Assembly: GCA_963666275.2 (NCBI GenBank)
Contig: CAXXOA010000001.1
Location: forward strand, 992,001-1,056,000
DNA: 64,000 nt
Direction: 5' to 3'
Origin: Oceanispirochaeta sp.
GTDB lineage: Bacteria > Spirochaetota > Spirochaetia > DSM-2461
Part shown: piece after piece, positions 40,273-62,050 of the stretch
Layout of the letters: each line of letters starts with the position of its first letter
Position numbering within the stretch: the first letter of the stretch is position 1
Position numbers and translations under genes: made by a program
The notes under the pieces: model-generated
The model's input: only the letters and a program-made list of their open reading frames with translations
Told to the model about the DNA's origin: nothing
Database searches by the model: none

Positions 40273-40301
40273 ACTTTAAAGAATACTGGAGAAAATGTCA
40301 A
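40273..40301 (-). promoter_or_regulatory. Sigma70-type promoter of the tRNA-Tyr/Thr pair
   Basis: Minus strand TTGACA (40301-40296), 17 bp spacer, TAAAGT (40278-40273). Confidence 0.7.
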
Positions 40302-40512
40302 TAAATGGCTGGAAGAACAGGGATTGGGCAATATCGAATATCTCTGGTGTTAAGCTCAGGGGTATATTTTATCAAATCAGGATTTTGTTTGCTCCATGGA
40401 GTGAACCGCCTCCGGTCACAGCTTCGCTGTTGCTCGTTTATACTTCCGACCCGTGGAGACCCGCATACTCATTTGGTGTGGGGGGGAGGGTAAAAGCCTC
40501 GGGCTACCCGAT
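40295..40512 (+). mobile_element. Degenerate 3' remnant of group IIC intron lineage A (RT C-terminus + DV-DVI)
   Basis: NKWLEEQGLGNIEYLWC followed by gtgaaccgcc...ggctacccgat, homologous to 47735-47914; 40-bp insert in DV. Confidence 0.9.
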
Positions 40513-40552
40513 TTCTACAGCTTTTTCATAATTTGCTGAATTACTCCGTATT

Positions 40553-41392
40553 CTATAGGATTCTGGCACTCCCCCCCACTTGCACACTCTCTATATTGCC
40601 TTGATTATTAGTCACTTTTACAAATATTCTTGAAGGGAGATTCAAAGTATATCCTTGTTCAAACTCGAAAGAACGATCGTTATTATCATCGCTATATTTC
40701 GACAAATAACAGGCTAATGCTCCATTTGATGTTCCTGTTGCAGACTCCTCATCTATTCCATATCTTGGTGCAAAGTTTCTTGTATGTGCATCGGCCTCAT
40801 TTATTGATTCAAGGCAAAAAGCATGTATTCCAACAACATCATATTTTTCACTTATCTTAGAAATACAATTGCTATTGGCTTTAAGCTGATTTAATGTCTT
40901 TAAATTTCGTATTGGAAGAATAATATCCCGTAATCCTGTTGATACAATCTGGATTGGCAAATCCGCATAGAAGTCATTATGATCCATGCTAAAGCAATTC
41001 ATTAATTCTTTTCTATCTATAATATCACCGAATTTAGGAATATTTTGTTCCATATAAACAAGTTTATCATATATTTCAAGCTGTAATACTCCAGCTCTAG
41101 TCTCTTGAGTATAACGACCACTTTTGATCACATGAAGATCTCTTAATAAATTAAAAGTTGCGATTGTTGCATGACCGCATAAATCAACTTCAGAAACAGT
41201 AGTGAAAAATTTGACCTTGAAATCAGCATATAAAGATTTCATAATAAACGCTGTCTCAGAAAAGCCAATGTCTTTCGCAATATTTAGCATTTCGTTCTCT
41301 GATAATATATCTGCATCCAAGACCACGCCAGCAGGATTCCCTCCCATATTATTATATTGAAATGCAGATATTTTATAGATTTGTCTATTCAT
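40553..41392 (-). CDS. PhzF family epimerase/isomerase (cassette gene)
   Basis: GGNPAGVV, GFSETAF, EVDLCGHATIA, RNFAP..GIDEESATGTSNG, EQG. Confidence 0.93.
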   Translation of the reverse strand: MNRQIYKISAFQYNNMGGNPAGVVLDADILSENEMLNIAKDIGFSETAFIMKSLYADFKVKFFTTVSEVDLCGHATIATFNLLRDLHVIKSGRYTQETRAGVLQLEIYDKLVYMEQNIPKFGDIIDRKELMNCFSMDHNDFYADLPIQIVSTGLRDIILPIRNLKTLNQLKANSNCISKISEKYDVVGIHAFCLESINEADAHTRNFAPRYGIDEESATGTSNGALACYLSKYSDDNNDRSFEFEQGYTLNLPSRIFVKVTNNQGNIESVQVGGSARIL

Positions 41393-41445
41393 AGATCGGT
41401 CCTTATTATCAAGTGAAGGAAATCTTCAATCATATAACTATCCTT

Positions 41446-42150
41446 CTAGTTTGCATATTCCCTTAACCAACTAGTTATTTCTTTTTCGGAATGTAGGTAG
41501 TGCTCACCATTTTTTACTATTGTAAGAGTTGCACTATATTTATTTATAAAGGAATCTATTATATATCGTTCAGTAAGATTGTCCTTCTCACCGTAAATAA
41601 TATGTGATTCAGTGTACCATCCTGAGATTTTGTTTTCCCTTATATATGTTAAATATTGCCAAGAAAGGGTCTCTCCTATTGGTATTGCGATTTCTTTTTT
41701 GGTTTTAAGATCATTTTCTGAAACATTAAACCATCCCATCATATTTTTTATTAATGCTTCCATATCTAATATTGGGGACTCAAATAGGCTTTTTTTAATT
41801 TTATAGTTTTCAAATGCGACTAAGCTAAAGTATGCCCCGATACTTGAAGCATATATCGATATTTCATTCCATTTATTACTTGCAAAAGTATAAACATTTT
41901 TTAATTCAGGCACACAATTTTGAATTATAAACTCTTTATCATTATCTTTTCGTTCACCATGCTTTGGTAAATCAAAACTTATTACTTGAAATCCTTTATA
42001 ATTACCTTCTTCCGCTAATCTCTCAGCATATTCTTTATGACTATCCTTTCCATGAATATATATGTATACTCTATCTGATTTTTCCCCCCATATTATTGCT
42101 GGGATACCATGAATTATCTGTTTATCTTTTTTCATTCCTAGCCTATTCAT
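41446..42150 (-). CDS. Alpha/beta hydrolase (cassette gene)
   Basis: IYIHG, SFDLPKHG, ASSIGA nucleophile elbow, YGEKD, GEH. Confidence 0.85.
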   Translation of the reverse strand: MNRLGMKKDKQIIHGIPAIIWGEKSDRVYIYIHGKDSHKEYAERLAEEGNYKGFQVISFDLPKHGERKDNDKEFIIQNCVPELKNVYTFASNKWNEISIYASSIGAYFSLVAFENYKIKKSLFESPILDMEALIKNMMGWFNVSENDLKTKKEIAIPIGETLSWQYLTYIRENKISGWYTESHIIYGEKDNLTERYIIDSFINKYSATLTIVKNGEHYLHSEKEITSWLREYAN

Positions 42151-42439
42151 TCTTTTTCTTATTTAACTTTATTTAAGCGCCGAAGGCGTCAGCCTGACGA
42201 GACTGTAGAAACACTCTATTTGAATATTTTTCCCTCTTTTTAAAATAGAATTATTCAGAGAATTATTCATCTCTCCATTTACGAATTTCTATCCATTAAA
42301 CCCGCATATATTCCATTACAATTGAATATATCTCTTAAAACTTCCAATCTCATTGGTTCTTTCGTATTCCTACAGACTATACCGCTGAAATTTCCCGATA
42401 TTATGCACCATGCAATACCGTAACCATTATATTCTGAGT

Positions 42440-42514
42440 ATGCTTCCGACCCGTGCGGACCCGCATGCTCATTTGGTGTGGGGGCTGGAGCTTAAAAGCC
42501 TCGGGCTACCCGAT
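42440..42514 (+). mobile_element. Group IIC intron DV-DVI remnant
   Basis: ccgtgcggacccgcatgc..tggtgtgggggctggagcttaaaagcctcgggctacccgat, followed by TTACGC (attC core remainder). Confidence 0.88.
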
Positions 42515-42532
42515 TTACGCAGATTTTAAATT

Positions 42533-42808
42533 TTATTTATATGCTTCATCATGAGACCCAATGCTTATGGGAATTATAGTATCATCTTGTATCAGGAACT
42601 CAACTGTAATTCGGTATGAAATATTAATTGATATGCTATATAACTCTGATAAATTACCTTTTAATTGATGTAAGCGTAGAGATGGGTGATTGGGGTTTAT
42701 TTCCATTAGCTGCAATGCCTTAGAATACTGTTTTTTTATCTCTGGGTGTTTTTTTAAGAATTTTGCAGCTTTTTTTTCGTAACTATGTGTAAATATAATT
42801 TTAGGCAT
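42533..42808 (-). CDS. RelE/YafQ-like type II toxin
   Basis: HPSLRLHQLKG, YSISINISYRI, SIGSHDEAY; overlaps the antitoxin stop. Confidence 0.88.
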   Translation of the reverse strand: MPKIIFTHSYEKKAAKFLKKHPEIKKQYSKALQLMEINPNHPSLRLHQLKGNLSELYSISINISYRITVEFLIQDDTIIPISIGSHDEAYK

Positions 42809-43058
42809 CAGTTATTCTTTCTATATGGTCTTCTATACTACCGGTATAATATTTTCCTTCTTGTATATCTTTCTTAGCTTCAACCAATGCTGCTTCAAGT
42901 TCACATTCTCTTAAGCGGTTGTATTCATCCATTGAAAGAACAACATATTTACTTTTACCTCGGACAGTTATGACTGCTTCATTCTCCTCTGAGATGACTT
43001 GATCCAGAACAGATACACCTTTAACTTTCAAATCATTGGCTGTTATACTATTAAACAT
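42801..43058 (-). CDS. Phd/YefM family antitoxin
   Basis: ITANDLK...AVITVRGKSKYVVLSMDEY. Confidence 0.9.
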   Translation of the reverse strand: MFNSITANDLKVKGVSVLDQVISEENEAVITVRGKSKYVVLSMDEYNRLRECELEAALVEAKKDIQEGKYYTGSIEDHIERITDA

Positions 43059-43072
43059 ATTGTTACCTCATT

Positions 43073-43254: not shown

Positions 43255-43365
43255 GTGTAACATTCTTTTCATTTGCAGACCGTAAACCTGGCGTGAAACT
43301 TGCCTGCGTAGCAGAAAAGCAGGTTTCATGACAGTAGGGCTGTCAATTGCAAAAGCAAGTTAAAT
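43255..43365 (-). other. attC site, intron-free (111 bp)
   Basis: gtgtaac-att-cttttcatttg ... tgaaacttgc-ctgc-gta-gcag-aaaa-gcaggtttca ... caattgcaaaag-caa-gttaaat. Confidence 0.88.
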
Positions 43366-43386: not shown

Positions 43387-44598
43387 CTAATACAAGAATC
43401 CAAAGAGATGTAATGGGATCTCGTATCTGGATCCGTATAATATATCATCTTTTACTAAATAGCTGTTTTCTAAATTTTCCTTTATCTGTTTTCTGTCCTT
43501 ATTTTTTCCACCGACTTCAAAGAAGTTGTTCTGAATCTTAAAATCACCAATTCTGCTCATGTGAACTTTGAGATTGGCGTTTAAAGTCATTCTGATGAAA
43601 AATATTTCTCTCAATGTTCCAATATTGGATTCAAAGCCGATTTCTTCAGCTACAGATTTATATATGTCCGGATTATCAAGAAATATCTTTTCAGTCTGTT
43701 TAAGAACTGCTGATCCTGATTTGTCCATTGATAAAAGAGTAATCACTCCTGTCTCATGCAGTATATTCAGGTAATTCTGTATTGTTTTGTTATCAAGCCC
43801 AAGATTCTTGGCTATGCTGTTCCTGTTCAATTCTCCGGGGGGGATGGTTGCCAGATAGCTGATAATGCGTTTGAAATTTATCAAATTCTCAGTTTTCAAT
43901 TTATAGTGGTTGGATATATCCTCATAAATTGTCTTATCAATGATCCTTAAGATTTTCTGATTGTATGTGGAAATCCCTTCTTGAGCGAAAGGATAATACC
44001 CACACCCTAAATATTCTTTGAAATGACCCCTGAGTTTTGGCACATCGGCTATTTTCGATTCAAAGTTCGACCTATTGGAGATTAAGTCATTAATAGTAAT
44101 TATACCTGTATCAGCGATATCATTGAAAAGGAGATACTCTCTAAATGATAAACCACCAATTCTGTAAATAACTCCTCTTCTGGATAAATCATATGTACCC
44201 TTGATCAGATCAATGCTGGAACTTCCTGAGAAGATGATTTTAATGTCCGGGTAGGCATCATATATATTTTTTAATTCCTGGTTCCAGTTCGGGTATTTAT
44301 GTATTTCATCCAGGAAAAAGTATTTTATACCATTTTCTTCGTATAGATCATTCACAAAATCTATTAAATTGTTTTGGGTGAAATAAATATGGTCTATAGA
44401 TGCATATATAGCTTCGTCAGGATTTGATATATTTTCTTTGATGTATTGAAGTAATAATGTAGTCTTACCCGTACCTCTTGGGCCAATTAACCCTGTAAGT
44501 CGATTCTCTGTATTAAAACTATCAAATATGTATCGGTGGTGAGGGTAGTTAGTCTGACTGAGAAGTCGTTTATATATAGCGATAAAATTATTCTTCAT
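43387..44598 (-). CDS. AAA+ ATPase (AAA_14/DUF4143-type) cassette gene
   Basis: GPRGTGKTT, FFLDEIHKY, SGSS, LSFREYL, G.YP, KIFLDNP, FEVGGK. Confidence 0.88.
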   Translation of the reverse strand: MKNNFIAIYKRLLSQTNYPHHRYIFDSFNTENRLTGLIGPRGTGKTTLLLQYIKENISNPDEAIYASIDHIYFTQNNLIDFVNDLYEENGIKYFFLDEIHKYPNWNQELKNIYDAYPDIKIIFSGSSSIDLIKGTYDLSRRGVIYRIGGLSFREYLLFNDIADTGIITINDLISNRSNFESKIADVPKLRGHFKEYLGCGYYPFAQEGISTYNQKILRIIDKTIYEDISNHYKLKTENLINFKRIISYLATIPPGELNRNSIAKNLGLDNKTIQNYLNILHETGVITLLSMDKSGSAVLKQTEKIFLDNPDIYKSVAEEIGFESNIGTLREIFFIRMTLNANLKVHMSRIGDFKIQNNFFEVGGKNKDRKQIKENLENSYLVKDDILYGSRYEIPLHLFGFLY

Positions 44599-44665
44599 TG
44601 GAATATACTCTACCTATATGCGTCATAATTATGATTGTACTCCAATATAAATAAATTTCAAGTCT

Positions 44666-44836
44666 ATTTAACACCCAAATATGATGCGAAGCGGCCTGAC
44701 CGAAGGGCAGGTATAGGCGCTTTTCTTGCTCCTTTATTCTAAACACCAGTTCGTTATTTGAGAAGAACAATTACTTTATCGAAGCTATTTCTGCAAGAAA
44801 TGTGATCTATAGCTTCGACTGCATCATTTGTTATCC
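44666..44836 (-). other. attC site, intron-free, one arm apparently shortened
   Basis: atttaac-acc-caaatatgatgc-gaagc ... ttttcttgc ... gcaagaaa ... gcttc-gact-gcatca-ttt-gttatcc. Confidence 0.75.
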
Positions 44837-45789
44837 AATTTTCTATATCTTGTCATTCTACCTTTACCTGAAGACACAATCCTCTTTTCTTCTAGTAATT
44901 GCTTTAAATCTCTGCTTGCTGTTGCACTAGATATACCTTTACAGACACTCATGTATTCTTTTCTATCAAACCAATCTTCTAGTTTTGATAAAGCTATTTT
45001 TGATCGTTTTTCATAATCAGGATTAACTGGTTTTGATTCATTAATTGTATTTCTTAGAGCTTCATTTATTACGTTCAACATGAATTCAATAAAAACAGTC
45101 GATTTTCCAGTATTATCCGATATTGATAACACTTTATAATACTCTTGCTGATTATCCTTAATTAACTTTTCTATTGGAACAAATTCAAATATCGGATTCA
45201 CATTCATCAATATCCGTGTTTGCCAAAATCTGCCCATACGACCATTTCCATCTTCAAAAGGGTGAATAAATTCCATTTCATAATGAAATACACAGCTTTT
45301 AATGATTTCTTGATCTTCATCGTGTTTTAAATATTGAAATAAATCTTTCATCAAACCTGGTACCATTTCTGAAGTAGGAGCAATATGTGTAACTTCTTTA
45401 CCTTTCATTATCCCAACTTGAGATTTTCGAAATTCACCAGGATTTGGAACTAAACCCTCCATTAAGATCCTATGTGCGTCTAAGAAATCTTTATTACTAT
45501 GTGGTTTAAAGGAATTTAATCGCTCATATGCGACAATTGCATTTTGAACTTCTAGAATATCTTTACTTGGGGCAATTATTCTTTGATTATCAATCAAGGC
45601 AGTAACATTCTCAATATTTAAAGTGTTACCTTCTATTGATAAGGATGATTGAATTGTTTTAATTCTATTTTGTCTTCTGAGTCTTGCTTCTGGTTTTACA
45701 AGCATTAAACTTTGGCAAATACCCAATCCTTCAGTTATTTGACCATATAATTTTAAAATTCGGTTTGTAATTTCATACGGTGGTTTCAT
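44824..45789 (-). CDS. Fic family protein with C-terminal HTH (cassette gene)
   Basis: SSLSIEGN; canonical HPFEDGNGRMGR; ISSATASRDLKQL HTH. Confidence 0.95.
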   Translation of the reverse strand: MKPPYEITNRILKLYGQITEGLGICQSLMLVKPEARLRRQNRIKTIQSSLSIEGNTLNIENVTALIDNQRIIAPSKDILEVQNAIVAYERLNSFKPHSNKDFLDAHRILMEGLVPNPGEFRKSQVGIMKGKEVTHIAPTSEMVPGLMKDLFQYLKHDEDQEIIKSCVFHYEMEFIHPFEDGNGRMGRFWQTRILMNVNPIFEFVPIEKLIKDNQQEYYKVLSISDNTGKSTVFIEFMLNVINEALRNTINESKPVNPDYEKRSKIALSKLEDWFDRKEYMSVCKGISSATASRDLKQLLEEKRIVSSGKGRMTRYRKLDNK

Positions 45790-45853: not shown

Positions 45854-46004
45854 GGATAACGTCCGGTTCTGTGGAATGCCGTTAAATGGCGCTTTTCTTG
45901 CTTTACTATGTTAACCAGCTTTTTCATAGCTAAAAATGCTTACCGAATTAATAATAAACCCAAAGCAAGAAATGTGACATAGGCATTTCCATAGCAACCG
46001 TTTG
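45854..46004 (-). other. attC site interrupted by intron A1 (completed by 47915-47920)
   Basis: ggataac-gtc-cggtt-ctgtggaatgcc ... ggcatttccatag-caaccg-ttt-g|ttatgt. Confidence 0.9.
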
Positions 46005-47914
46005 GTACGCCTGACATGGCAATAAACTTATGAGTTGAAAGTCCACTACAGCTACCCACGTATAGTAAACATGCTATACCAACTGTTAGCCGACGGCAAG
46101 GGCAATTCCGTGAGGAATTGTCTGGAGGAAGCCTGAGTGCAAAACCGGGAGCCCATGTATAAGAATGTGATATGGAATGCGAGTCACGCAGCATTCCACC
46201 CCCCAGTTCCGGAGGCTGGTCGCAAACAAGTTTGCTGCTCGCCCATGCAGCCTAGGGCGAGTCAGCCAATGATGACGATGCCCCGTGGGTGAGGGATAGG
46301 GTAAATCACAGGGTTGTCCGGCCCTGGTCGTAAACTTCGCTTGCTGCTCGCCCATGCAACCGGGGCATAGTAGCCAACGCCCGGAGTAATGTCCGGTTCA
46401 TGGTGAAGGCCTGAACATTTCACAAGGAGGAGCCTTATGGTTCTCAAAGGAACAATTTCAGTTTATGCCGGAATCACTTTTGGCGGACCATGGAGAAACA
46501 AGCCTTGAACGAATCTATGATGGATTTGATTTTATCCTCTGAAAATATGCACAAAGCCTGGAAACAGGTCAAACGCAATGGAGGTAGCCCTGGAATCGAC
46601 GGTATCACTGTCGAGAAGTTTCCAGGATATCTGAAAACCAGATGGCCTAGAATCAAACGAGCTTTGCTCAACGGGTACTATGTACCTTCTCCGGTGCTGA
46701 GGGTAGAAATCCCGAAGAAATCCGGAGGCTGGTCGCAAACAAGTTTGCTGCTCGCCCATGCAACCGGGGGAAAACGGATGCTGGGAATCCCGACAGTTCT
46801 AGACAGGGTTATCCAGCAGGCTATTTCACAGGTTCTGAATCCCATATTTGATCCGGATTTCTCGGAGCATAGCTATGGATTCAGACCGGGAAGATCGGCT
46901 CACGGAGCAGTGAAACAGGTAAATCAACATGTCAAATCCGGGTATAGATACGCCGTGGATCTGGACTTGGAAAAGTTCTTTGATACAGTTAATCATGATA
47001 TCCTGATGCATTTTGTGGCTGTAAAAGTCTGGGACAAATCTGTCCTCAGACTCATCGGCCGTTACCTGAGAGCCGGTATTCAGTTGGACAATGGAAAAGT
47101 GATTCCTACAGACATCGGCACACCCCAAGGCGGGCCCTTATCACCTCTGCTTTCCAATATCCTCCTTGATCGGTTGGATATGGAACTGGAGAGAAGAAAT
47201 GTGAGGTTCGCACGGTATGCAGATGACACTATCCTTTTAACGAAGAGATTGTGTGATGCTAGGAAGATCCTACAGGAAGTTTCAATATTTCTGGTAAGGA
47301 AATTGAAATTGGTAGTGAATCAGGAGAAAACGAAAGTTGCAAAGATAAGGGAGTGCAGTTTCCTGGGATTCACATTCAAGGGTAAGAAGATTCGCTGGAC
47401 AGAGTCGTCCTTTGAGGATTTTCGGTATCATCTGAAATATCTGACAAGGCGTTCCTGGGGTGTTTCCATGGAATACAGAATCGGGAAACTCAATGAGTAT
47501 ATCCGGGGCTGGATGAACTACTATGGGATCTCCCAATATTACAGCCCTATACAGAATCTTGATGACTGGCTCCTTAGGAGGATTCGCATGTGCTACTGGA
47601 AACAGTGGCGATATCCCAGAACGAAAGTCAGGAAACTGATGGAACTGGGAATTCCGAAAGATTTTGCCATTATCACCGGTGCCAGTAGTAAATCCTATTG
47701 GCATCTCTCCAAGTCTTACGCTACCAATGCAGCTATGTCCAATAAATGGCTGGAAGAGCAGGGATTGGTCAATATCAAATATCTGTGGTGTAAAGCCCAG
47801 GGATATATCTGATCAAATCAGGATTTCGTTTGCTCCATGGAGTGAACCGCCCCGTGCGGACCCGCATGCGGGGTGGTGTGGGGGCTGGAGGTTAAAAGCC
47901 TCCGGCTACCCGAT
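46005..47914 (+). mobile_element. Group IIC-attC intron, lineage A copy 1 (1910 nt; 5' RNA damaged)
   Basis: 5' GTACGCC, DV gaaccgccccgtgcggacccgcatgcggggtggtgtg, 3' CCCGAT; 229-nt segment replaced and hairpin inserts relative to copy 2. Confidence 0.93.
46490..47812 (+). CDS. ltrA: Group II intron reverse transcriptase/maturase (no endonuclease domain), with 14-aa insert
   Basis: PGIDG, LGIPTVLDR, SYGFRPGR, DLEKFFD, GTPQGGPLSPLL, RYADD, domain X. Confidence 0.95.
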   Translation: MEKQALNESMMDLILSSENMHKAWKQVKRNGGSPGIDGITVEKFPGYLKTRWPRIKRALLNGYYVPSPVLRVEIPKKSGGWSQTSLLLAHATGGKRMLGIPTVLDRVIQQAISQVLNPIFDPDFSEHSYGFRPGRSAHGAVKQVNQHVKSGYRYAVDLDLEKFFDTVNHDILMHFVAVKVWDKSVLRLIGRYLRAGIQLDNGKVIPTDIGTPQGGPLSPLLSNILLDRLDMELERRNVRFARYADDTILLTKRLCDARKILQEVSIFLVRKLKLVVNQEKTKVAKIRECSFLGFTFKGKKIRWTESSFEDFRYHLKYLTRRSWGVSMEYRIGKLNEYIRGWMNYYGISQYYSPIQNLDDWLLRRIRMCYWKQWRYPRTKVRKLMELGIPKDFAIITGASSKSYWHLSKSYATNAAMSNKWLEEQGLVNIKYLWCKAQGYI

Positions 47915-47922: not shown

Positions 47923-48786
47923 TCAATTATTTATTACCAAGTATTCAGTCAAACATAATTGATCATTCTTTTTTCCAATAACAAATAAGATATTTCTTTC
48001 AAAGTCATAATCTATAGAATATATTCTAGTTTCTTCTGAATTTATATTTTCCATTTTTGTTATACCTTCATCAATATTATAAAGCTTGAAATTGTTAATG
48101 CAAGAAGTTAGAAAACGATTATTACCAATATAAACAGCAGATGTTATAAGTTCTTTTTCATCTATTTTATACTTGTCTTCATTATTAGTTATATAATATT
48201 CATATCCTTTATACGGAATATTAATCCCATAAATGAAGTCTTTTGAATTTAATTTATGATCAAAAACCATTAATTCATTTTCTGTAATAACTGTCTCACA
48301 AAAGCCTGAAATTAATGAGTATTTTTGGATCTTTACTTTTTTTTCTCCAGGAAAATATCTCTCAATAAAAAAAGATGTATCAGTATCCCAGAAAATATTC
48401 CTAATGATTAAGAGTTCATCTTTACTTGTAATTAAAGCATCCAAATTTGAATCCAATCTATTCTCTTCAACTAAAGTAATTCCAGAGAACCAACCCGAAT
48501 GCCCTGAAATAAACAATAATGAATTATCCATGAAACTCATGCTAAAGATTGATAGTTCATCAGGAATAAGTGAGCTTATATTATTCCTTTCACCATTTTC
48601 ATCATAAAAATAGAGAGAATGCCCCATCGAAATATAAAAACCATTATTAGTTCCTGAAACAAGTAGTGGTAATCCTTCTCTATTGAAATAGAATTCATCA
48701 ATTTTCTGTAGTTCTAATGAATATAAATTTGTAAATATCAATATGACTAATAAATATGTAATTGCTTTTTTCATCATTAATTCCAT
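47923..48786 (-). CDS. Exported protein of unknown function (putative immunity partner)
   Basis: Signal peptide MKKAITYLLVILIFTNLYS; beta-rich; abuts the stop of the upstream gene within the same cassette. Confidence 0.7.
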   Translation of the reverse strand: MELMMKKAITYLLVILIFTNLYSLELQKIDEFYFNREGLPLLVSGTNNGFYISMGHSLYFYDENGERNNISSLIPDELSIFSMSFMDNSLLFISGHSGWFSGITLVEENRLDSNLDALITSKDELLIIRNIFWDTDTSFFIERYFPGEKKVKIQKYSLISGFCETVITENELMVFDHKLNSKDFIYGINIPYKGYEYYITNNEDKYKIDEKELITSAVYIGNNRFLTSCINNFKLYNIDEGITKMENINSEETRIYSIDYDFERNILFVIGKKNDQLCLTEYLVINN

Positions 48787-49844: not shown

Positions 49845-50128
49845 TACTAATCTCCCCAAATAATGATTTCTTGTTTTACATTTAGTAATTTACGTCATTA
49901 ATATATATTGATTCTTTTAATGATTCTTGTCACTAGATAATATGAATTGTTTTTCTTACAAATAACCCATTTTCTTCGTAGCATAATCCTCCACCGGAGG
50001 TTTCTTCCCAATTTTTCTCCCACTGGGGTTTCTTTCTATTTCATACTTATTCTTCCATCCGGCGGAAGAAATCTAATTCTATCCGTATAGTGTAACATAC
50101 AAAGGTGTATAATGAACAGCCGTAACCC

Positions 50129-50233
50129 ACATAACATCGATTTAACTAGCAGACAGATAGCTGGCGGATTCTGTGCCTGCAAAGCAGATAAGCACAGAAT
50201 GTGACCAGCCTGGCTGACTAGTTCAAATCCTTG
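50129..50233 (-). other. attC site interrupted by intron A2 (completed by 52265-52270)
   Basis: acataac-atc-gatttaactag ... attctgtgc-ctgc-aaa-gcag-ataa-gcacagaat ... ctagttcaaatc-ctt-g|ttagat. Confidence 0.9.
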
Positions 50234-53299: not shown

Positions 53300-53327
53300 A
53301 ATTTACCCTTTCCGTTTCTTGCAATAA

Positions 53328-54048: not shown

Positions 54049-54144
54049 ATCTAACTATCTTTTAAGTAGCAGATCGTAAACTGGCGAGATCGTTGCCAAA
54101 GCAAGGATCATGACAGTAGAACTGACTACTTCAAAAGCTCGTTA
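54049..54144 (-). other. attC site interrupted by intron B (completed by 56119-56121)
   Basis: atctaac-tat-cttttaagtag ... gatc-gttgc-caaa-gcaag-gatc ... ctacttcaaaag-ctc-gtta|tat. Confidence 0.88.
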
Positions 54145-56118
54145 GTACGCCCGGCATGGGTATCAACTTATGGGGTGAAAGTCCCCTGCAGGTTCTCACA
54201 GATAGTTAATGCTATCCAAACTGCTAGCCAGAGGCAAGGGCATCTTCGTGAGGAGTTGTCTGAAGGAAGCCCGACGGCAAAACCGGGAACCGATGAACAA
54301 AAATGTGATATAAGGCCTAGTTTCAGAGACGAGTTAGCTAACGATAACGATGTCCGGTGAGAGTGAAACAGGGTAAATCACACGGTTGTCCGGGGAAAGC
54401 TGATACCCTTATCCGGGGAGGCCTGTTTGCACGGCGATTTTGATGAAGACCTTTCGGAATAATCGGCAGAAGGATGCCGATCAAAGCAAATCCCGGCTGT
54501 TCACAAGGTGGCAATTGTGAAACGGAGCCATCATCCGATGGAACACAAAATGATGTCACAGAAAGTTCTTCATGGAAAGCATTAGTGGTAGCAATTTCAC
54601 TGATTAGCAGACAGGAGTCAGCAGAAGGCATAGTAGCCAACGCCCGGAGTAATGCCCGGTTCACGGCGAAGGCCTGAACATTTCACAAGGAGGAGCCTTA
54701 TGGTTCTCAGGAACAAAACTATTTCTGGCGGATCATGGAGAAACCAGCCTTGAACAACACCTTGATGGATCTGATTCTTACATCGGAAAACATGCACAAA
54801 GCCTGGAAGCAGGTGAAGAGCAACGGAGGAAGTCCCGGAGTTGACGGCATAACCGTCGAAGAATTCCCGGCATACCTTCGGAATCGATGGGAAAGGGTCA
54901 GGCGAGCTTTGCTTTTTGGGTACTACGTGCCCTCTCCGGTTAAACGGGTCGAAATCCCCAAGAAATCCGGAGGAAAACGAATACTGGGTATCCCGACAGT
55001 ACTCGACCGGGTTATCCAGCAAGCCATTACACAGGTTCTGAGTCCGATCTTCGATCCCGATTTTTCGGATTGCAGTTTTGGATTCAGGCCGGGAAAATCG
55101 GCTCATGGAGCAGTGAAGAAGGTTCAGAGCTATGTTGTATCAGGATATGGCTATGCTGTGGATCTGGACTTGGAAAAGTTCTTTGATACAGTCAATCATG
55201 ATATTCTGATGCATCTGGTCGGCCGGAAAGTCCGGGACAAGAAAGTCCTCAGGTTGATCGGTCGGTACCTTAGAGCCGGAATTCTGGATAAAGAAGGAAA
55301 TAACCTTCCAACTGTTGTTGGGACTCCTCAAGGAGGCCCTCTTTCTCCGCTTCTTTCAAATATCCTTTTGGATCAGTTTGATAAGGAGCTGGAAAGACGT
55401 AAGTTATTGTTTTCCCGATATGCTGATGATGCCATAATTTTGGTCCGAAATCAGCATGAAGGATCTCGACTTCTATCAGAGGTCTCCAGCTTCCTGAGCA
55501 GGAAACTGAAACTCATTGTCAATGAGGAAAAGAGTAAGGTTGCACCGATAAGAGATTGTTCATTCCTGGGTTTTACCTTCATCGGGGGAAAGATCCGCTG
55601 GACAGAAAAGGCGTACCAGGATTTCCGTTACAACATCAGACGTTTGACTGGACGATCATGGGGTGTTTCCATGAAATACCGCTATAGCAAACTGAATCAA
55701 TACTTGAGAGGCTGGATGAATTACTATGGTATTTCCGAATACTACAGGCCGATTCCGGGACTTGAAGAATGGCTCAGAAGGAGAATCCGTATGTGCTACT
55801 GGAAACAGTGGCGCAGATGTCGAACAAAAGTCAACAACTTGATCAAACTAGGGATTCCGGTGCGTGCTGCTATACCTGCCGGTACATGCAGCCACTCTTA
55901 CTGGAAGATGTCGAAGACTTACACAACGAATGCAGGTCTATCCAATAAATGGCTGGAAGAGCAGGGACTAGTCAGTATTAAAGCCCTTTGGTGCAAAGCC
56001 CAAGGGTATACTTGACCAGATTGAGGAAGCTGTTTGCTTCATGAAATGAACCGCCCTGTGCGGATCCGCTTGCAGGGTGGTGTGGGGACTGGGGGAGAGA
56101 AACCCCCGGTTACCCGAT
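54145..56118 (+). mobile_element. Group IIC-attC intron, lineage B (1974 nt)
   Basis: 5' GTACGCCCGG, DV gaaccgccctgtgcggatccgcttgcagggtggtgtg, 3' CCCGAT; clearly diverged from lineage A. Confidence 0.93.
54735..56015 (+). CDS. ltrA: Group II intron reverse transcriptase/maturase, lineage B
   Basis: PGVDG, GTPQGGPLSPLL, RYADD; 426 aa. Confidence 0.95.
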   Translation: MEKPALNNTLMDLILTSENMHKAWKQVKSNGGSPGVDGITVEEFPAYLRNRWERVRRALLFGYYVPSPVKRVEIPKKSGGKRILGIPTVLDRVIQQAITQVLSPIFDPDFSDCSFGFRPGKSAHGAVKKVQSYVVSGYGYAVDLDLEKFFDTVNHDILMHLVGRKVRDKKVLRLIGRYLRAGILDKEGNNLPTVVGTPQGGPLSPLLSNILLDQFDKELERRKLLFSRYADDAIILVRNQHEGSRLLSEVSSFLSRKLKLIVNEEKSKVAPIRDCSFLGFTFIGGKIRWTEKAYQDFRYNIRRLTGRSWGVSMKYRYSKLNQYLRGWMNYYGISEYYRPIPGLEEWLRRRIRMCYWKQWRRCRTKVNNLIKLGIPVRAAIPAGTCSHSYWKMSKTYTTNAGLSNKWLEEQGLVSIKALWCKAQGYT

Positions 56119-56122
56119 TATT

Positions 56123-56310
56123 TCATATAGTTTTTAGCCTAAATCTAATTGATGAAGGGCTAAAACCCATTTTTTCATAAAAACCAATTGCATTACTGTT
56201 GTTTGCAAATACTGATAGACGTATATCAGTCAACCCTTTTTCTCTTATCCATTCTAATCCATGCATGAATAAGCTTTTCCCAATTCCTCGTTTACGTATT
56301 CCTTCGGTTA
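56123..56310 (-). pseudogene. 3' fragment of a GNAT acetyltransferase cassette gene, truncated by IS3
   Basis: TEGIRKRGIGKSLF...LSVFANNSNAIGFYEKMGF...KTI*; not in the ORF track. Confidence 0.85.
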
Positions 56311-56340
56311 TGAACCACCCCGAGAATCCCGGAGACAGAT

Positions 56341-57246
56341 TTACTTGAGTCCGGCTGTTACTGCCAGACTAATTTCCTGTTCATAATACATCATTTCAAA
56401 CTCTTGTGGAGAAATATATCCCAGAGGTTCCATGATCCGTTTGTTATTATACCAATCCACCCAGTCTAAAGTAGCCAGTTCAACCTGTTCAATCGAGCGC
56501 CAGGGACCATCTTTGTGAATGACTTCTGCCTTGTATAGACCGTTTATTGTCTCTGCCAGAGCATTGTCATAAGAGTCACCTTTACTCCCAACTGATGGAT
56601 CAATTCCTGCTTCAATAAGTCGTTCTGTATAGGAAATAGCCAGATATTGAGAACCACGATCACTATGATGGATCAGCTTTTCTGTTACCTGTCTTGCCCA
56701 CAATGCCTGATTGAGTGCATCCAAAGTAAAATCCGTTTTCATTGACGTTGATGCCCGCCACCCGACAATCATTCTTGAAAATACATCAATTATGAAAGCA
56801 ACATAAACAAATCCCCTCCAAGTGGAAACATAGGTGAAGTCAGCCACCCACAGCTCGTTTGGCCTGGAAGCAGTGAAATCCCGGTTTACAAGATCATCAG
56901 GCCTGTTATCTTTCGTCGGAATCGTTGTCCTGACTTTCTTACCACGAATTACACCACGAAGCCCCATGGCACGCATTAAACGCTCTACAGTGCATCTGGC
57001 GACGGGGATTCCTTCTTTATTCATGGCCTGCCAGACTTTTTTAGCTCCATATACACATCTATTCTCAAACCAGACCCGTTTGATTTCATCTTTCAGGTGG
57101 TTATCCCTTTTTACTCTTGGAGGCTCTCTGTCTGGATCTGATTGCCGTGATTTCATTTCGTAATAGGTTGATGGAGCTATCTGAATATTCTTACAGAGAG
57201 GCTCGACTCCATGATTTTCCCTATTCTTATCAATGAAATTGACCAT
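56341..57246 (-). CDS. IS3 transposase OrfB (DDE)
   Basis: WVADFTYV, HHSDRGSQY, SYDNALAETINGLYKAE. Confidence 0.95.
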   Translation of the reverse strand: MVNFIDKNRENHGVEPLCKNIQIAPSTYYEMKSRQSDPDREPPRVKRDNHLKDEIKRVWFENRCVYGAKKVWQAMNKEGIPVARCTVERLMRAMGLRGVIRGKKVRTTIPTKDNRPDDLVNRDFTASRPNELWVADFTYVSTWRGFVYVAFIIDVFSRMIVGWRASTSMKTDFTLDALNQALWARQVTEKLIHHSDRGSQYLAISYTERLIEAGIDPSVGSKGDSYDNALAETINGLYKAEVIHKDGPWRSIEQVELATLDWVDWYNNKRIMEPLGYISPQEFEMMYYEQEISLAVTAGLK

Positions 57247-57566
57247 TATTTCTTTCGGCGGTCGAGCTCCGCCTGGGCGAAATATGCTGATGCCTTACGC
57301 AATATCTCATTGGCTTCTCTTAGCTCACGAACTTCTCTTTCAAGTTCCTTTATTCTTGCCCGTTCTTCACTGGAGACGCCTTCCTTGATACCACGGTCTA
57401 TCTCGGTTTGTTTTACCCATTTTCTCAGAGACTCCGGAGTACACCCGGTTTTTGAGGCTATTGAAATTATTGCTGCCCACCGTGATTCATAGTCTTTTTC
57501 ATGATCAAAGACCATCCTGACTGCCCGCTCTTTAACTTCTTGAGCATACCTGATTCTTTTTCCCAT
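57246..57566 (-). CDS. IS3 transposase OrfA
   Basis: RAVRMV...LRKWV...[30 protein letters not shown]. Confidence 0.95.
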
Positions 57567-57616
57567 AACACAATCCTCTCATATAATTGTGTCTCCGGGA
57601 AACCCGGGGTGGTTCA

Positions 57617-58318
57617 CGGTATGCAGATGACACTATCCTTTTAACGAAGAGATTGTGTGATGCTAGGAAGATCCTAAAGGAAGTTTCAATATTTCTGGTA
57701 AGGAAATTGAAATTGGTAGTGAATCAGGGAAAAACGAAAGTTGCAAAGATAACGGAATGCAGCTTCCTGGGGTTCACATTCAAGGGTAAGAAGATTCGCT
57801 GGACTGAGTCGTCTTTTGAGGATTTTCGGTATCAACTGAAATATCTGACAAGGCGTTCCTGGGGTGTTTCCATGGAATACAGAATCGGGAAACTCAATGA
57901 GTATATCCGGGGCTGGATGAACTACTATGGGATCTCCCAATATTACAGCCCTCTACAGAACCTTGATGACTGGCTCCGTAGGAGGATTCGCATGTGCTAC
58001 TGGAAACAGTGGCGATATCCCAGAACGAAAGTCAGGAAACTGATGGAACTGGGAATTCCGAAAGATTTTGCCATTATCACCGGTGCCAGTAGTAAATCCT
58101 ATTGGCATCTCTCCAAGTCTTACGCTACCAATGCAGCTATGTCCAATAAATGGCTGGAAGAGCAGGGATTGGTCAATATCAAATATCTGTGGTGTAAAGC
58201 CCAGGGATATATCTGATCAAATCAGGATTTCGTTTGCTCCATGGAGTGAACCGCCCCGTGCGGACCCGCATGCGGGGTGGTGTGGGGGCTGGAGGTTAAA
58301 AGCCTCCGGCTACCCGAT
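57617..58318 (+). mobile_element. 3' part of lineage A intron (copy 4); RT truncated just before RYADD
   Basis: Matches 61304-62005; begins exactly at the IS3 end. Confidence 0.93.
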
Positions 58319-59893
58319 TTATATGTCATCTTTTATGTAATTTTGATTAATGACTACTTTGTATTTTCCTTTTAAATATTCTTTTCCAGAATAAATATTT
58401 GGCACATTTATCCTTTTAATTCGCTTTACCTCAAGAGTTCCAATTAATTTCTTTCCTAACCCATGATTATTTAATTTTCTTTCTCTCATGTCTTCATTAA
58501 AAATATTTATTCTGCAATATCCTAGTTGTAAAAAATTTATAGCACTTCTCTTTTGATATTTAGCTTTTCTTAAGCATTTTCTTATTATTTTTCGTTTCAG
58601 TTCAAAAAGCATATTTTCATTGATGTTTGAATGATTAATTATAATATTTGCATTTAATATTAGAGACATTTTATTTCTATGTATCTTAGCATCTCTAACA
58701 CTGATATCAATTGGGTTTAAATTCTTTTTAATTTCATCAAATGCTAATGGCATGTGTAACTTAAATGAATGATAAAGGCTATTTATTTTGTATACAATTT
58801 TTGGGAGTTTATATTTTAATAATGCAAAAACTCCACCATCAAGAAAAACTCCTTCATAATTATCCATAGAGACATTTTTTGACTTTCTATTTTTCCGTAA
58901 TAGTTTACCATCTAATCTTGCCCAACCTGGTCCTTTTATCACTTTAGAACGTATTGATATAAAATATACATCAAATCCTTTTAAAAAGAATTCAGAATAT
59001 AAAGCTGTTAGAAAAGAATAAAACTGTAATTTGCTTATATCTGTTGTATGTGATTCGCAAAATATAATTAGCTGGTTTTTATTATTTATAATTTTAGATT
59101 CAAGAATTCCTTCAACACTCCACCAAGGAGAATCTAACTCCTTCTTTATTTCTTGAACAGTAAAATGCTTTGAAATAGTTAAATCTGGATTATTTAACAA
59201 ATATATTTTCATTGCCAAGCAAAATGCGTTACATACATCAATAAGATCATCAAACAGTCTTATAAAATTTGATATATCTTGTTTAACCCTTTTTCCTTTT
59301 TTATCATAGAATTCAATCTCATCTTTATAGAAGAGTATTTTTCCATGTGCAATACCATTCCGAATTGTGTTATTGTAATTGCCTTGAATATCTTTAAAAT
59401 CTGTTTGCTTCAATTCGTCATTACAATTATATATATCTAAGTTATCAGTACCTTTTTTTCGTTGTCTCCTAGAATTTAGAGCAATGAAGTAAATAAAAAT
59501 ATGGTAGATACTTTCTAGAGTTTTTAGATATTGTGGTACTATGCTATCATTTATGTATAAAGCACTTTGGAATTCATTTGTACTTTTACTATTTTCATGG
59601 ATATCTTTTGAATTGATTTCTGACATCGTTTTTATTGCAATATCAATTTCTGTGCTTTTTTCATTTATGTCTTTTTTTGAACATGAACTCTTTAGAAAAG
59701 CATAATATTTATAAAATAATTCCTTATTGTAGTATTTCTCTGGTGATTTTTGAATATATCTTTGCAGAGAAACACCTTGATTTAATATTGGCTCAGTCAA
59801 TTCCGGAAAATATTCTTTAATTTTTTCTTTCAATTGTCTATTGAGTGTATGAGTAAGATTGTTTCCAAAAAGACTTAAAATTCTATTATCCAT
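58319..59893 (-). CDS. Hypothetical cassette protein with an RxxxxH (HEPN-like) motif
   Basis: 524 aa AT-rich ORF; IRNGIAHG; stop codon overlaps the attC core. Confidence 0.7.
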   Translation of the reverse strand: MDNRILSLFGNNLTHTLNRQLKEKIKEYFPELTEPILNQGVSLQRYIQKSPEKYYNKELFYKYYAFLKSSCSKKDINEKSTEIDIAIKTMSEINSKDIHENSKSTNEFQSALYINDSIVPQYLKTLESIYHIFIYFIALNSRRQRKKGTDNLDIYNCNDELKQTDFKDIQGNYNNTIRNGIAHGKILFYKDEIEFYDKKGKRVKQDISNFIRLFDDLIDVCNAFCLAMKIYLLNNPDLTISKHFTVQEIKKELDSPWWSVEGILESKIINNKNQLIIFCESHTTDISKLQFYSFLTALYSEFFLKGFDVYFISIRSKVIKGPGWARLDGKLLRKNRKSKNVSMDNYEGVFLDGGVFALLKYKLPKIVYKINSLYHSFKLHMPLAFDEIKKNLNPIDISVRDAKIHRNKMSLILNANIIINHSNINENMLFELKRKIIRKCLRKAKYQKRSAINFLQLGYCRINIFNEDMRERKLNNHGLGKKLIGTLEVKRIKRINVPNIYSGKEYLKGKYKVVINQNYIKDDI

Positions 59894-59913
59894 TTTACCT
59901 CATACCTTTGTAC

Positions 59914-60016
59914 ATATAACGCCCGCATAACCTGTTTTCCGTACATGGCGGAAATCCTGCCTGCGAAGCAGAAAAAGCAGGATTTGTGACATAGGAAAAT
60001 CTGGTTCATGCGTTTG
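59914..60016 (-). other. attC site interrupted by intron A5 (completed by 62006-62011)
   Basis: atataac-gcc-cgcataacc ... aaatcctgc-ctgc-gaa-gcag-aaaaa-gcaggattt ... ggttcatgcg-ttt-g|ttatgt. Confidence 0.9.
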
Positions 60017-62005
60017 GTACGCCTGACATGGCAATAAACTTATGAGGTGAAAGTCCTCTACAGCTACCCACGTATAGTAAACATGCTATACCAACTGTTA
60101 GCCGACGGCAAGGGCAATTCCGTGAGGAATTGTCTGGAGGAAGCCTGAGTGCAAAACCGGGAGCCCATGTACAAGAATGTGATAGAAGGCCCAGTTCTGG
60201 AGGTGAGTCAGCCAATGATGACGATGCCCCGTGGGTGAGGGATAGGGTAAATCACAGGGTTGTCCGGGGAATGTTTATTGTCTTATTCGGGGAGATCTGT
60301 CTGCAAGGCGGTAACACCGGTTTGACCGTGAGAATCCGGAGGATACCGGGGTAACAAATCCAGGCCTATCAGGGGATGACACTCTGATAAGGAGCCGTTT
60401 ATACGGAACACAAAGAAGTCGTCACAGCGATTCAAACCGGATGATACAGCGTCAGCAGGAGTAATTCTACTGATAAGCAGACAGAAGTCAGCAGAAGGCA
60501 TAGTAGCCAACGCCCGGAGTAATGTCCGGTTCATGGTGAAGGTCTGAACATTTCACAAGGAGGAGCCTTATGGTTCTCAAAGGAACAATTTCAGTTTATG
60601 CCGGAATCACTTTTGGCGGACCATGGAGAAACCAGCCTTGAACGAATCTATGATGGATTTGATTTTATCCTCTGAAAATATGCACAAAGCCTGGAAACAG
60701 GTCAAACGCAATGGAGGTAGCCCTGGAATCGACGGTATCACTGTCGAGAAGTTTCCAGGATATCTGAAAACCAGATGGCCTAGAATCAAACGAGCTTTGC
60801 TCAACGGGTACTATGTACCTTCTCCGGTGCTGAGGGTAGAAATCCCGAAGAAATCCGGAGGAAAACGGATGCTGGGAATCCCGACAGTTCTAGACAGGGT
60901 TATCCAGCAGGCTATTTCACAGGTTCTGAATCCCATATTTGATCCGGATTTCTCGGAGCATAGCTATGGATTCAGACCGGGAAGATCGGCTCACGGAGCA
61001 GTGAAACAGGTAAATCAACATGTCAAATCCGGGTATAGATACGCCGTGGATCTGGACTTGGAAAAGTTCTTTGATACAGTTAATCATGATATCCTGATGC
61101 ATTTTGTGGCTGTAAAAGTCTGGGACAAATCTGTCCTCAGACTCATCGGCCGTTACCTGAGAGCCGGTATTCAGTTGGACAATGGAAAAGTGATTCCTAC
61201 AGCAATCGGCACACCCCAAGGCGGGCCTTTATCACCTTTGCTTTCCAATATCCTCCTTGATCGGTTGGATATGGAACTGGAAAGAAGAAATGTACGGTTT
61301 GCACGGTATGCAGATGACACTATCCTTTTAACGAAGAGATTGTGTGATGCTAGGAAGATCCTAAAGGAAGTTTCAATATTTCTGGTAAGGAAATTGAAAT
61401 TGGTAGTGAATCAGGGAAAAACGAAAGTTGCAAAGATAACGGAATGCAGCTTCCTGGGGTTCACATTCAAGGGTAAGAAGATTCGCTGGACTGAGTCGTC
61501 TTTTGAGGATTTTCGGTATCAACTGAAATATCTGACAAGGCGTTCCTGGGGTGTTTCCATGGAATACAGAATCGGGAAACTCAATGAGTATATCCGGGGC
61601 TGGATGAACTACTATGGGATCTCCCAATATTACAGCCCTCTACAGAACCTTGATGACTGGCTCCGTAGGAGGATTCGCATGTGCTACTGGAAACAGTGGC
61701 GATATCCCAGAACGAAAGTCAGGAAACTGATGGAACTGGGAATTCCGAAAGATTTTGCCATTATCACCGGTGCCAGTAGTAAATCCTATTGGCATCTCTC
61801 CAAGTCTTACGCTACCAATGCAGCTATGTCCAATAAATGGCTGGAAGAGCAGGGATTGGTCAATATCAAATATCTGTGGTGTAAAGCCCAGGGATATATC
61901 TGATCAAATCAGGATTTCGTTTGCTCCATGGAGTGAACCGCCCCGTGCGGACCCGCATGCGGGGTGGTGTGGGGGCTGGAGGTTAAAAGCCTCCGGCTAC
62001 CCGAT
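60017..62005 (+). mobile_element. Group IIC-attC intron, lineage A copy 5 (1989 nt, apparently intact)
   Basis: GTACGCC...CCCGAT, no inserts. Confidence 0.95.
60623..61903 (+). CDS. ltrA: Group II intron reverse transcriptase/maturase (426 aa)
   Basis: RT0-7 motifs, RYADD, domain X. Confidence 0.95.
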   Translation: MEKPALNESMMDLILSSENMHKAWKQVKRNGGSPGIDGITVEKFPGYLKTRWPRIKRALLNGYYVPSPVLRVEIPKKSGGKRMLGIPTVLDRVIQQAISQVLNPIFDPDFSEHSYGFRPGRSAHGAVKQVNQHVKSGYRYAVDLDLEKFFDTVNHDILMHFVAVKVWDKSVLRLIGRYLRAGIQLDNGKVIPTAIGTPQGGPLSPLLSNILLDRLDMELERRNVRFARYADDTILLTKRLCDARKILKEVSIFLVRKLKLVVNQGKTKVAKITECSFLGFTFKGKKIRWTESSFEDFRYQLKYLTRRSWGVSMEYRIGKLNEYIRGWMNYYGISQYYSPLQNLDDWLRRRIRMCYWKQWRYPRTKVRKLMELGIPKDFAIITGASSKSYWHLSKSYATNAAMSNKWLEEQGLVNIKYLWCKAQGYI

Positions 62006-62050
62006 TTATGTCGCCTCCATCTACCATCAATTTTATCATTTATGTTATGT

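Follow-up and report, generated by a model that had tools for sequence, protein, structure and literature searches.

The 64,000-nucleotide stretch analysed here (the window) contains part of a cassette array whose open reading frames (ORFs) all lie on the minus strand and whose introns all lie on the plus strand (Table 1), opposite to the cassettes as the earlier note had described. The array runs past the window to intI at C1:1063760 (window-equivalent 71760), and two more introns are found there. The same note had advised looking for intI and attI past position 64000, and both were located 7–8 kb beyond the window. IntI matches TIGR02249 at C1:1063760–1064701 with 390 bits (cut-off 265), and its 407-aa ORF contains no stops. 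The integrase gene is divergent from the array and is present in nine of ten same-genus genomes. The attI crossover, ACATAAC, matches GTTATGT of the first cassette, and complementary R′′/R′ ends were matched along the array. No excision joint was found among the joints listed for contigs of the matching sample, which is probably the source sample of the assembly. Several cassettes match PADLOC models. The remnant at 40295–40512, which forms the distal end of the array, adjoins two tRNAs.

Table 1. Features of the cassette array within the window
Feature	Position	Strand	Remarks
Intron A, 3′ remnant	40295–40512	+	End of ORF, D5 broken by mini-insert (∼39 nt), D6
PhzF family cassette gene	40553–41392	−	
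Cassette gene	41446–42150	−	Weak alpha/beta-hydrolase match
Intron A, 3′ remnant	42446–42514	+	69 nt, altered D5
Type II toxin–antitoxin cassette	42533–43058	−	Phd/YefM antitoxin and RelE/YafQ-like toxin
Empty attC	43255–43365	+	Bottom strand on +; CAAG at IBS1 position, cannot pair with EBS1 of intron A
AAA_14 ATPase cassette gene	43387–44598	−	PADLOC PDC-S01 match
Empty attC	44666–44836	+	IBS1 TTTG, pairable; Fic ORF reads through insertion point
Fic domain cassette gene	44824–45789	−	PADLOC SoFic match
attC body (R′, L′, L′′)	45854–46004	+	Ends TTG at intron junction
Intron A copy	46005–47914	+	ORF 46490–47812, 440 aa
Two-gene cassette	47923–49859	−	Tail-tube (gp19/CIS-like)–M23 peptidase fusion, then 287-aa protein of no assigned family
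attC body	50129–50233	+	Ends CTTG at intron junction
Intron A, full copy	50234–52264	+	ORF 50840–52162, 440 aa with 14-aa insert; EBS1 CAAU within 50422–50441
P1out-like motif of preceding intron	50300–50328	−	
DUF4365 nuclease-like cassette gene	52274–53299	−	
Cassette gene	53328–54032	−	PADLOC Tin match
attC body	54049–54144	+	Ends CTCGTTA; unpairable with EBS1 of intron A, taken by intron B
Intron B	54145–56118	+	ORF 54735–56015, 426 aa; EBS1 UAAC within 54331–54350
P1out-like motif of intron B	54209–54237	−	
GNAT-like cassette gene, 3′ part	56119–56310	−	Cut by IS3; label from translation read by eye
IS3-family element	56311–57616	−	ORFs 56341–57246 and 57246–57566; ALIL pseudoknot
Intron A, 3′ 701 nt	57618–58318	+	5′ part and attC lost at IS3 end
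524-aa cassette gene	58319–59893	−	Without family match; TAA stop abuts intron
attC body	59914–60016	+	Ends TTTG at intron junction
Intron A, full copy	60017–62005	+	1989 nt; ORF 60623–61903, 426 aa; EBS1 within 60205–60224; D5 61937–61968
P1out-like motif of preceding intron	60083–60111	−	
R′′ core remainder	62006–62011	+	TTATGT
DUF6119/TIGR04141 cassette gene	62051–63736	−	

All seven intron 3′ ends claimed previously were found on the plus strand (40512, 42514, 47914, 52264, 56118, 58318 and 62005), each with the motif GG[C/T]TACCCGAT and each followed directly by the rest of the R′′ core. Genome-wide, this motif has 19 matches, of which 18 fall within four cassette clusters; the reversed control gives two. 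Intron DNA is present at nine of the 11 cassette ends of the array, which bears out the description of a nearly saturated array, but only four of the seven window copies have a 5′ end (46005, 50234, 54145 and 60017). The attC body has been lost at the three 3′ remnants (40295–40512, 42446–42514 and 57618–58318), and D5 is damaged in the first two, which are short. The altered D5 of the second recurs at C2:1173808 and at the orthologous toxin–antitoxin cassette of a sister species, G003. The copy at 46005–47914 contains two mini-inserts, a hairpin of 24 nt inserted in DI, an in-frame ORF insert of 42 nt and an internal deletion of 228 nt. The agents of decay are IS3, IS66 and a 35-nt mini-insert; no Rfam family was found for the mini-insert.

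The assignment of these elements to antisense group IIC-attC introns lying in R′′ is supported by the protein tree, D5 and the target site. The intron-encoded protein matches RVT_1 and GIIM only and scores over the cut-off of TIGR04416; that of the 60017–62005 copy has YADD and consists of RT plus maturase with no En. In a 20-row tree introns A and B, which are 73% identical, group with the class 1 integron IIC-attC references L028 and L029 (support 98.2/98) in a clade separate from other RTs, including that of a terminator-type intron; a 40-row tree did not resolve the base. D5 is of the short IIC type (32 nt with a CGC triad), D6 has a bulged A and the introns end in AY, a D5/D6 fold matching that of L028 in five of the seven window copies and broken in two remnants. 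Insertion is antisense and falls within R′′ on the bottom strand of attC in six of six complete array copies and at all 11 5′ junctions of the source genome (G000), with near-identical copies standing in unrelated attC sites. A class E or IIB intron was ruled out by the D5 type and the placement with the IIC-attC references. Introns A and B are two variants, with shifted guides, of a known class whose named members, from class 1 and chromosomal integrons, include S.ma.I2, E.c.I7, Kl.pn.I1, N.e.I1, G.s.I1 and Sh.ba.I2 (PMC3001079). With these they share the 5′ GTACGCC and 3′ CCCGAT ends, a length of 1.9–2.0 kb, the En-less RT/maturase (50–52% identity to the references), the D5 features, the antisense position in R′′ and a candidate P1out-like motif in DI.

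In silico removal of the introns, which had been set as a check, rebuilds the junctions: all six complete copies of the array (four in the window and two beyond) leave canonical attC hairpins. Empty sites were sought with a profile scan whose training sites came from relatives without the intron, and all counts were taken from it because a loose, fold-only scan gives many false hits in AT-rich DNA. The only empty full attC sites that it found in the array are the two reported earlier, at 43255–43365 and 44666–44836.

Occupancy of the attC sites tracks IBS1 pairing and strand. In both introns EBS1 is located in an 8-nt loop and fits the 3–4 bp EBS1–IBS1 pairing rule; intron A (CAAU) inserts at TTG|TT and intron B (UAAC) at GTTA|T. 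The 5′ junctions of intron A read xTTG/T in nine of ten cases and AATG/T in one, and that of intron B reads GTTA/T. Relative to the reference insertion, TTGT|T, the register is shifted by −1 in intron A and +2 in intron B, with EBS1 changed to match; the host, likely a spirochaete, is a further difference from the references. TTGT/T (IBS1/IBS3) is a majority rule and not absolute (PMC7923331), and it is because introns A and B lie off it that we call them variant; their registers may already be described in Quiroga and Centron 2009. Across related introns EBS1 covaries with the 5′ exon (ACAA/TTGT, ACCA/TGGT, CACA/TGTG, CAAT/xTTG and TAAC/GTTA), and the invaded sites are unrelated in sequence, yet all are cut at the base predicted by EBS1. 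On the plus strand of the source genome intron A is found in ten of 12 pairable sites and in none of seven unpairable sites (Fisher p = 7e-4, a value that overstates the significance since sites in one array are not independent); one of the seven holds intron B. Of the eight sites left empty here only two are pairable, compared with 28 of 29 in four relatives that lack the intron. Among 25 junctions a single one is crossed by an ORF, and it belongs to one of these two sites. Sites occupied by an IS110-like element, one each in G000 C2 and G003 C3, were excluded from the occupancy counts, as were partial matches and those 3′ remnants that lack a 5′ junction; the site at C1:1295353, with an IS just past the core, was counted as empty. 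As the remaining empty sites are mostly unpairable with the guide loop, the intron has likely exhausted nearly all of its reachable targets. The earlier note had overlooked the shift in insertion register, the way in which IBS1 governs which sites stay empty, and the bias towards one replication strand.

Taking G000 and G003 together, 14 of 16 sites pairable with intron A are filled on the lagging-strand template versus two of 15 on the leading. Around every invaded cluster the plus strand is rich in G, and the skew switches at dnaA. An opposite-strand cluster of six sites (C1:1.29–1.30 Mb) has no introns in its five pairable sites; it may simply postdate the burst of insertion. The leading-strand template of G003 carries two full copies and one partial copy. 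In three relatives (G002, G006 and G008) the integron is oriented the other way, and the stretches covered contain no intron end; in G001, which has a weak plus skew, three of four pairable sites are empty. Only intI aligned among the integron flanks of the relatives, so that an inversion could not be shown. Three Desulfobacterota chromosomes show no clear orientation bias (7/13, 10/13 and 5/10, or 22/36 among the matches listed), this being a crude count of unverified motif matches in which dnaA was assumed to be the origin, three presumed-terminus matches were dropped and 15 matches lay outside the count.

In our view, the likely explanation is a chromosomal integron filled by numerous antisense copies of two group IIC-attC introns in a selfish burst of retrohoming into pairable sites on the template of the lagging strand. 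The endonuclease-less RNP would reverse-splice into attC hairpins that are presumably single-stranded at the fork, and would in this way enter nearly every EBS1-pairable site on that template. Intron B is present in one copy only despite having a near-universal core as its target, and this explanation leaves that unaccounted for. Terminator-targeting group IIC introns, as described in PMC10190682, likewise recognize a hairpin through short EBS1/IBS1 and EBS3/IBS3 pairings and use the lagging strand at forks, and one G003 copy lies after a terminator-like hairpin; they differ in belonging to a separate protein clade, and in G000 every one of the 11 5′ junctions falls at attC.

That the copies spread chiefly as DNA, through gene conversion between attC–intron junctions or through IntI moving intron-bearing cassettes, is quite unlikely compared with independent retrohoming. 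The copies are mosaics of two haplotypes, a splicing-dead D5 variant occurs at three G000 junctions and one G003 junction, and a 2389-bp cassette-plus-intron unit occurs at two G003 loci, all of which would fit such spread. The cuts at the EBS1-predicted base in unrelated attC sites argue against it, as does the difference of ∼15 bases between the two G003 units: an empty copy of the duplicated cassette is closer to the integron copy, while the integron's intron matches other recent copies, which favours insertion after integration. Movement of cassette plus intron as a unit was sought in G003, and the sole duplicated unit better fits independent insertion. The earlier expectation that the repeats recombine is borne out by the mosaics, but deletion or shuffling of cassettes from intron to intron was not shown; such deletion lies beyond an end-matching test, its joints being inseparable from repeat-graph joints.

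Comparison with relatives, also proposed earlier, shows that G003 repeats the architecture with an intron protein that is 83% identical; its copies are mostly identical, pointing to recent activity. Mis-assembled repeats, raised in the earlier note as an objection, are unlikely. The copies carry distinct variants, and contigs of the matching sample show no differences between neighbouring intron ends. The unitig that the introns share has a depth of 87× versus 9–15× for unique flanks. Assembly collapse was rejected on these grounds, with the caveat that whole introns are not bridged by any read or contig of that sample, so that cassette order is not independently proven; the genome itself is in three contigs. 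That the density itself is an artefact of a repeated element is scarcely credible when G003 shows the same pattern.

The earlier note had proposed that splitting the core should block IntI. The site split by intron A reads G-G-T against AAC, and in IntI1 assays one unpaired middle base lowered attC × attI1 recombination from 2.2e-3 to 6e-6 (PMC2811028). Extrapolating from IntI1 and attC-aadA7, it is plausible that intron A, which breaks the core, blocks excision at its sites, and much of the array is likely frozen; for intron B, whose insertion keeps GTT and a 5-bp R box, the proposal is unsupported. On the retrohoming explanation, insertion of intron A, across from the point of IntI cleavage, would leave the core unpaired and halt recombination there, so that new cassettes would enter at attI and then become fixed, a one-way ratchet.

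Antisense introns cannot splice from cassette mRNA, as had been pointed out, and this is true in principle; it matters little since no cassette gene is interrupted. None of the 17 intron junctions is crossed by a cassette ORF, and the insertions are located at or after stop codons. The P1out-like motif (TTGCCG/T-17-TAGCAT, intron positions 65–95) stands at a conserved position in A and B and also in G003; it was not listed by a generic promoter scan, and the motif search that found it also picks up P1out as published for the two references. This candidate promoter, carried by each intron, would transcribe the cassette that follows (cf. PMC3001079). Host tolerance likely owes to the position of the insertions and to this outward promoter.

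It could be argued that selection maintains the introns because they act as locks and promoters that stabilize and express defence-type cassettes on an excision-prone orientation. We consider this unlikely. An orientation that places the bottom strand of attC on the template of the lagging strand promotes excision and is rare among sedentary chromosomal integrons (5/30; PMC5371416), and the conserved motif position, the PADLOC matches and the recurrence in G003 agree with the proposal; but copies towards the distal end are decaying and have lost the 5′ end with the promoter, in G003 copies also lie inside an IS66 and next to a chromosomal gene, after a hairpin resembling a terminator, and most integron-bearing relatives are without the intron (six of 38 have a match and two have more than one). 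The array resembles those five integrons in its small size (∼11 sites; class median 15), divergent intI and toxin–antitoxin cassette at the far end, and differs in that introns have split or removed the majority of its sites.

The cassette-genesis model of Leon and Roy, as summarized in PMC7923331, would make the introns intermediates that join genes to attC by recombination of two copies. The many homologous, recombining copies and the G003 copy beside a chromosomal gene suit it. However, the R′′/R′ ends are complementary in cassettes that keep both ends, which is what finished, IntI-integrated cassettes should show, and near-identical attC sites are empty elsewhere in the genome (C3:279380 against C1:1056548), making this very improbable here.

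More speculatively, and on balance doubtfully, the locus may record an arms race over attC, with the EBS1 of intron B re-aimed at the invariant GTTA core and integron orientation acting as an anti-intron defence. Intron B would then enter a site unusable by A, leave it recombinogenic and so be able to travel in IntI-excised cassettes, and orientation as defence would explain the rarity of introns in most integrons. That scarcity has been called perplexing and the role of the introns left open (PMC3001079). The element class is known; what stands out is the density of the copies, their retargeting and the likely exhaustion of targets. The locus is a counter-example to scarcity with internal controls in one genome, namely pairable and unpairable sites and two orientations, and it makes testable whether intron load depends on replication orientation, whether split attC sites are dead and whether natural changes in EBS1 shift the insertion point along the core.

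Other attC parasites lie antisense to cassettes, namely the IS1111-attC elements ISPa21 and ISPst6 (PMC3001079), which differ in transposing as DNA by means of a recombinase, without an RNA intermediate. In the source genome an IS110-like element also occupies attC ends.

All seven intron 3′ ends that the earlier note had read in the cassette array (40295–62011) are present (40512, 42514, 47914, 52264, 56118, 58318 and 62005), but a 5′ end accompanies only four copies in the window (46005, 50234, 54145 and 60017). Two further complete copies lie beyond the window. Removal in silico of the six complete copies rebuilt a canonical attC hairpin in each case (6/6), and a profile trained on 17 attC sites from relatives lacking the intron picked out the same two empty sites in the array as had been proposed (43255–43365 and 44666–44836), and only those. 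Intron DNA stands at nine of the 11 cassette ends (six complete or near-complete copies, three remnants) and accounts for 8892 nt of the 21717 in that interval. Genome-wide the 3′-end motif is met 19 times, 18 of these within four cassette clusters and every one on the + strand, compared with two occurrences of the reversed control. One matching sample, which is probably the source, has contigs over the unique inter-intron stretches with zero differences; none spans a whole intron, and depth on the intron exceeds that of the flanks.

Features of the genome under study (G000), its integron and the elements that interrupt the introns
Feature	Position	Strand	Remark
Genome	C1:992001–1056000 (window)		5.27 Mb, 3 contigs
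Integron integrase	C1:1063760–1064701	+	TIGR02249, 390 bits (cut-off 265)
IS3	56311–57616		decay agent of intron copy
Mini-element	46216–46249		
Mini-element	46324–46359		
Mini-element	46729–46763		
Mini-element	51079–51113		

The integrase and attI were located beyond position 64000, where the earlier note had suggested looking; the integrase ORF comprises 407 aa without stops and is preceded by the attI crossover, some 170 bases before its start. The cassettes lie on the − strand and extend through the window as far as two tRNAs at 40055–40219. Near 63790 and 41465 we note isolated, partnerless R′-like heptamers between cassette genes. These are likely to be deleted attC sites, the cassettes being thereby fused, in which case some sites have gone without an intron trace. 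The cargo includes an unusual gene (48786–49859, − strand) in which a T4 gp19/CIS-like tail-tube domain is fused to an M23 peptidase, and which overlaps an ORF of 287 aa with no function assigned. PADLOC matches in the cassettes at 43387–45789 and 52274–54032 are to PDC-S01, SoFic, an Argonaute-associated nuclease domain and Tin.

The observation is real, and the introns are members of the known group IIC-attC class, in a variant form. Their proteins have only RT and maturase domains, and D5, 32 nt long with a CGC triad, is of IIC type. Spirochaetaceae records are the closest named relatives of the intron protein (79–88%), which makes a spirochaete the likely host. In a 20-row tree the main intron (A) and the single divergent copy at 54145–56118 (B) nest with the reference introns of class 1 integrons (L028 and L029), apart from six outgroup RTs (98.2/98), among which a terminator-like hairpin was seen upstream of L091 only. 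A 40-row tree gives a spirochaete clade at 100/100 with an unresolved base.

The variation concerns the insertion register. The insertion point is T(T/G)GT↓T in the references and in most relatives outside the spirochaetes, which agrees with the TTGT/T given as majority consensus in PMC7923331. Intron A inserts one base earlier (TTG↓TT), at a point that faces the IntI cut when the site is folded, and intron B two bases later (GTTA↓T). The EBS1 loop shifts with the register, from ACAA in the references to CAAU in A and UAAC in B; other relatives show the EBS1/target pairs ACCA/TGGT and CACA/TGTG, and the CAAU form is common to G001, G003, G017, L053 and L098. Neither shifted register was met in the literature examined, though either may already be described in the primary target-site papers.

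The occupancy of intron A follows pairing with EBS1. Taking as pairable an IBS1 position with at least three of four pairs to CAAU, A occupies ten of 12 pairable sites on the + strand and none of seven with fewer pairs, one of which holds B. Among empty sites, 2/8 are pairable here versus 28/29 in stretches from four compared genomes (G002, G006, G008 and G019), the pattern expected if A had exhausted its targets. The two exceptions are 44666–44836, the sole junction of 25 to be read across by an ORF (Fic), and C3:279380.

Occupancy also follows the replication strand. As indicated by GC skew and dnaA (C2:470385), the + strand of all invaded clusters is the lagging-strand template, and an opposite-facing six-site cluster (C1:1290217–1304914) has no intron in five pairable sites. 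In the sister species G003, whose intron protein is 83% identical, the same-orientation integron has nine exact 3′-end motifs and no empty site; its opposite-facing clusters have two of ten pairable sites filled. Pooling both species gives 14/16 pairable sites filled on the lagging template versus 2/15 on the leading, although the sites are not independent. Integron orientation is opposite in G002, G006 and G008, with no intron ends within the 40 kb fetched. This bias agrees with the use of lagging strands by IIC proteins, which are without endonuclease (PMC10190682), and with the favouring of attC folding on the lagging-strand template, avoided by 25 of 30 sedentary integrons (PMC5371416). 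However, in G003 the local skew is mixed immediately before the array, three of four pairable sites are empty in G001, and a crude count over three Desulfobacterota chromosomes gave 22/36. Intron protein matches at E ≤ 1e-100 occur in six of 38 family genomes, many fragmented, with more than one match in G000 and G003 only. What the array offers is near-complete use of its available targets, two natural EBS1 retargetings side by side and a strand control within the genome; we regard it as well suited for testing and not as an element of a new kind.

The proposal that intron insertion blocks IntI holds, as a prediction, for A and not for B. The folded A-split site sets G-G-T against AAC with the R box mostly opened; the B-split site retains GTT and five pairs. 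Since a single unpaired middle base lowered IntI1 recombination from 2.2e-3 to 6e-6 (PMC2811028), recombination is predicted to be almost abolished at A-split sites but not at the B-split site. No ORF crosses any of 17 intron junctions, and a TAA stop directly abuts the intron at five. A P1out-like motif (TTGCCG/T-17-TAGCAT) at intron positions 65–95 is directed at the next cassette; it is absent from the output of a generic promoter scan. The promoter search recovers the P1out sequences and positions of L028 and L029 as in Table 3 of PMC3001079, where S.ma.I2 is described as impeding read-through while supplying such a promoter.

The suggestion that the intron repeats provide a recombination route was borne out for exchange between copies, but not by any demonstrated cassette deletion. 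Eleven aligned A copies are mosaics of two haplotypes; the copies at 60017 and C2:1176052 are identical at every variable site over intron positions 1187–1506, with 75 differences overall. The mosaics show exchange, by DNA recombination or template switching.

Decay has involved IS3, IS66 (outside this stretch) and a hairpin mini-element of about 35 nt. A profile of this element scores 34 hits genome-wide; 11 of them lie within introns, at three intron positions. Its insertion sites are CCNGG-like, often within larger CCCCTCTCC...GGAGAGGGG palindromes; it has no Rfam match, and no mobiliser was found. In five of ten full A ORFs it adds 14 in-frame residues to the RT, splitting the IPK..R.LGIP motif between its K and its R, both conserved, and the L053 intron (79% identical) carries it at the identical codon. 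It further marks where deletions end in the 46005 copy and in L055. The deletion in the former, of 228 nt, extends between one mini-insert and the position of another in the related intron L052, suggesting recombination between two mini-inserts. One and the same altered form of D5, likely splicing-dead, recurs at four junctions (42446–42514, 40450–40512, C2:1173808–1173876 and G003 C2:1653251–1653332). As this D5 stands at the orthologous TA cassette in both species, either that insertion is older than the G000/G003 split or the cassette moved together with the remnant.

An IS110-like element, so labelled from a reading of its N-terminus, is a second attC parasite in both species, found at the R″ end (G000 C2:1166480 and C1:1295350; G003 C3, locus L048 near 15213). 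Relatives of A also occur outside attC in G003, at C2:1656889 within an IS66 itself interrupting another intron copy and at C2:97525 downstream of a terminator-like hairpin. A short gene-less cassette, possibly a promoter or non-coding cassette, is present there in at least five copies (C2:1685067–1687455 and the C3/C4 clusters), either empty, intron-filled or IS-interrupted. In the Desulfobacterota genome G058 (C7, L087), clusters of the 3′-end motif, for example four in 719–726 kb and five in 1211–1231 kb, suggest further intron-rich arrays.
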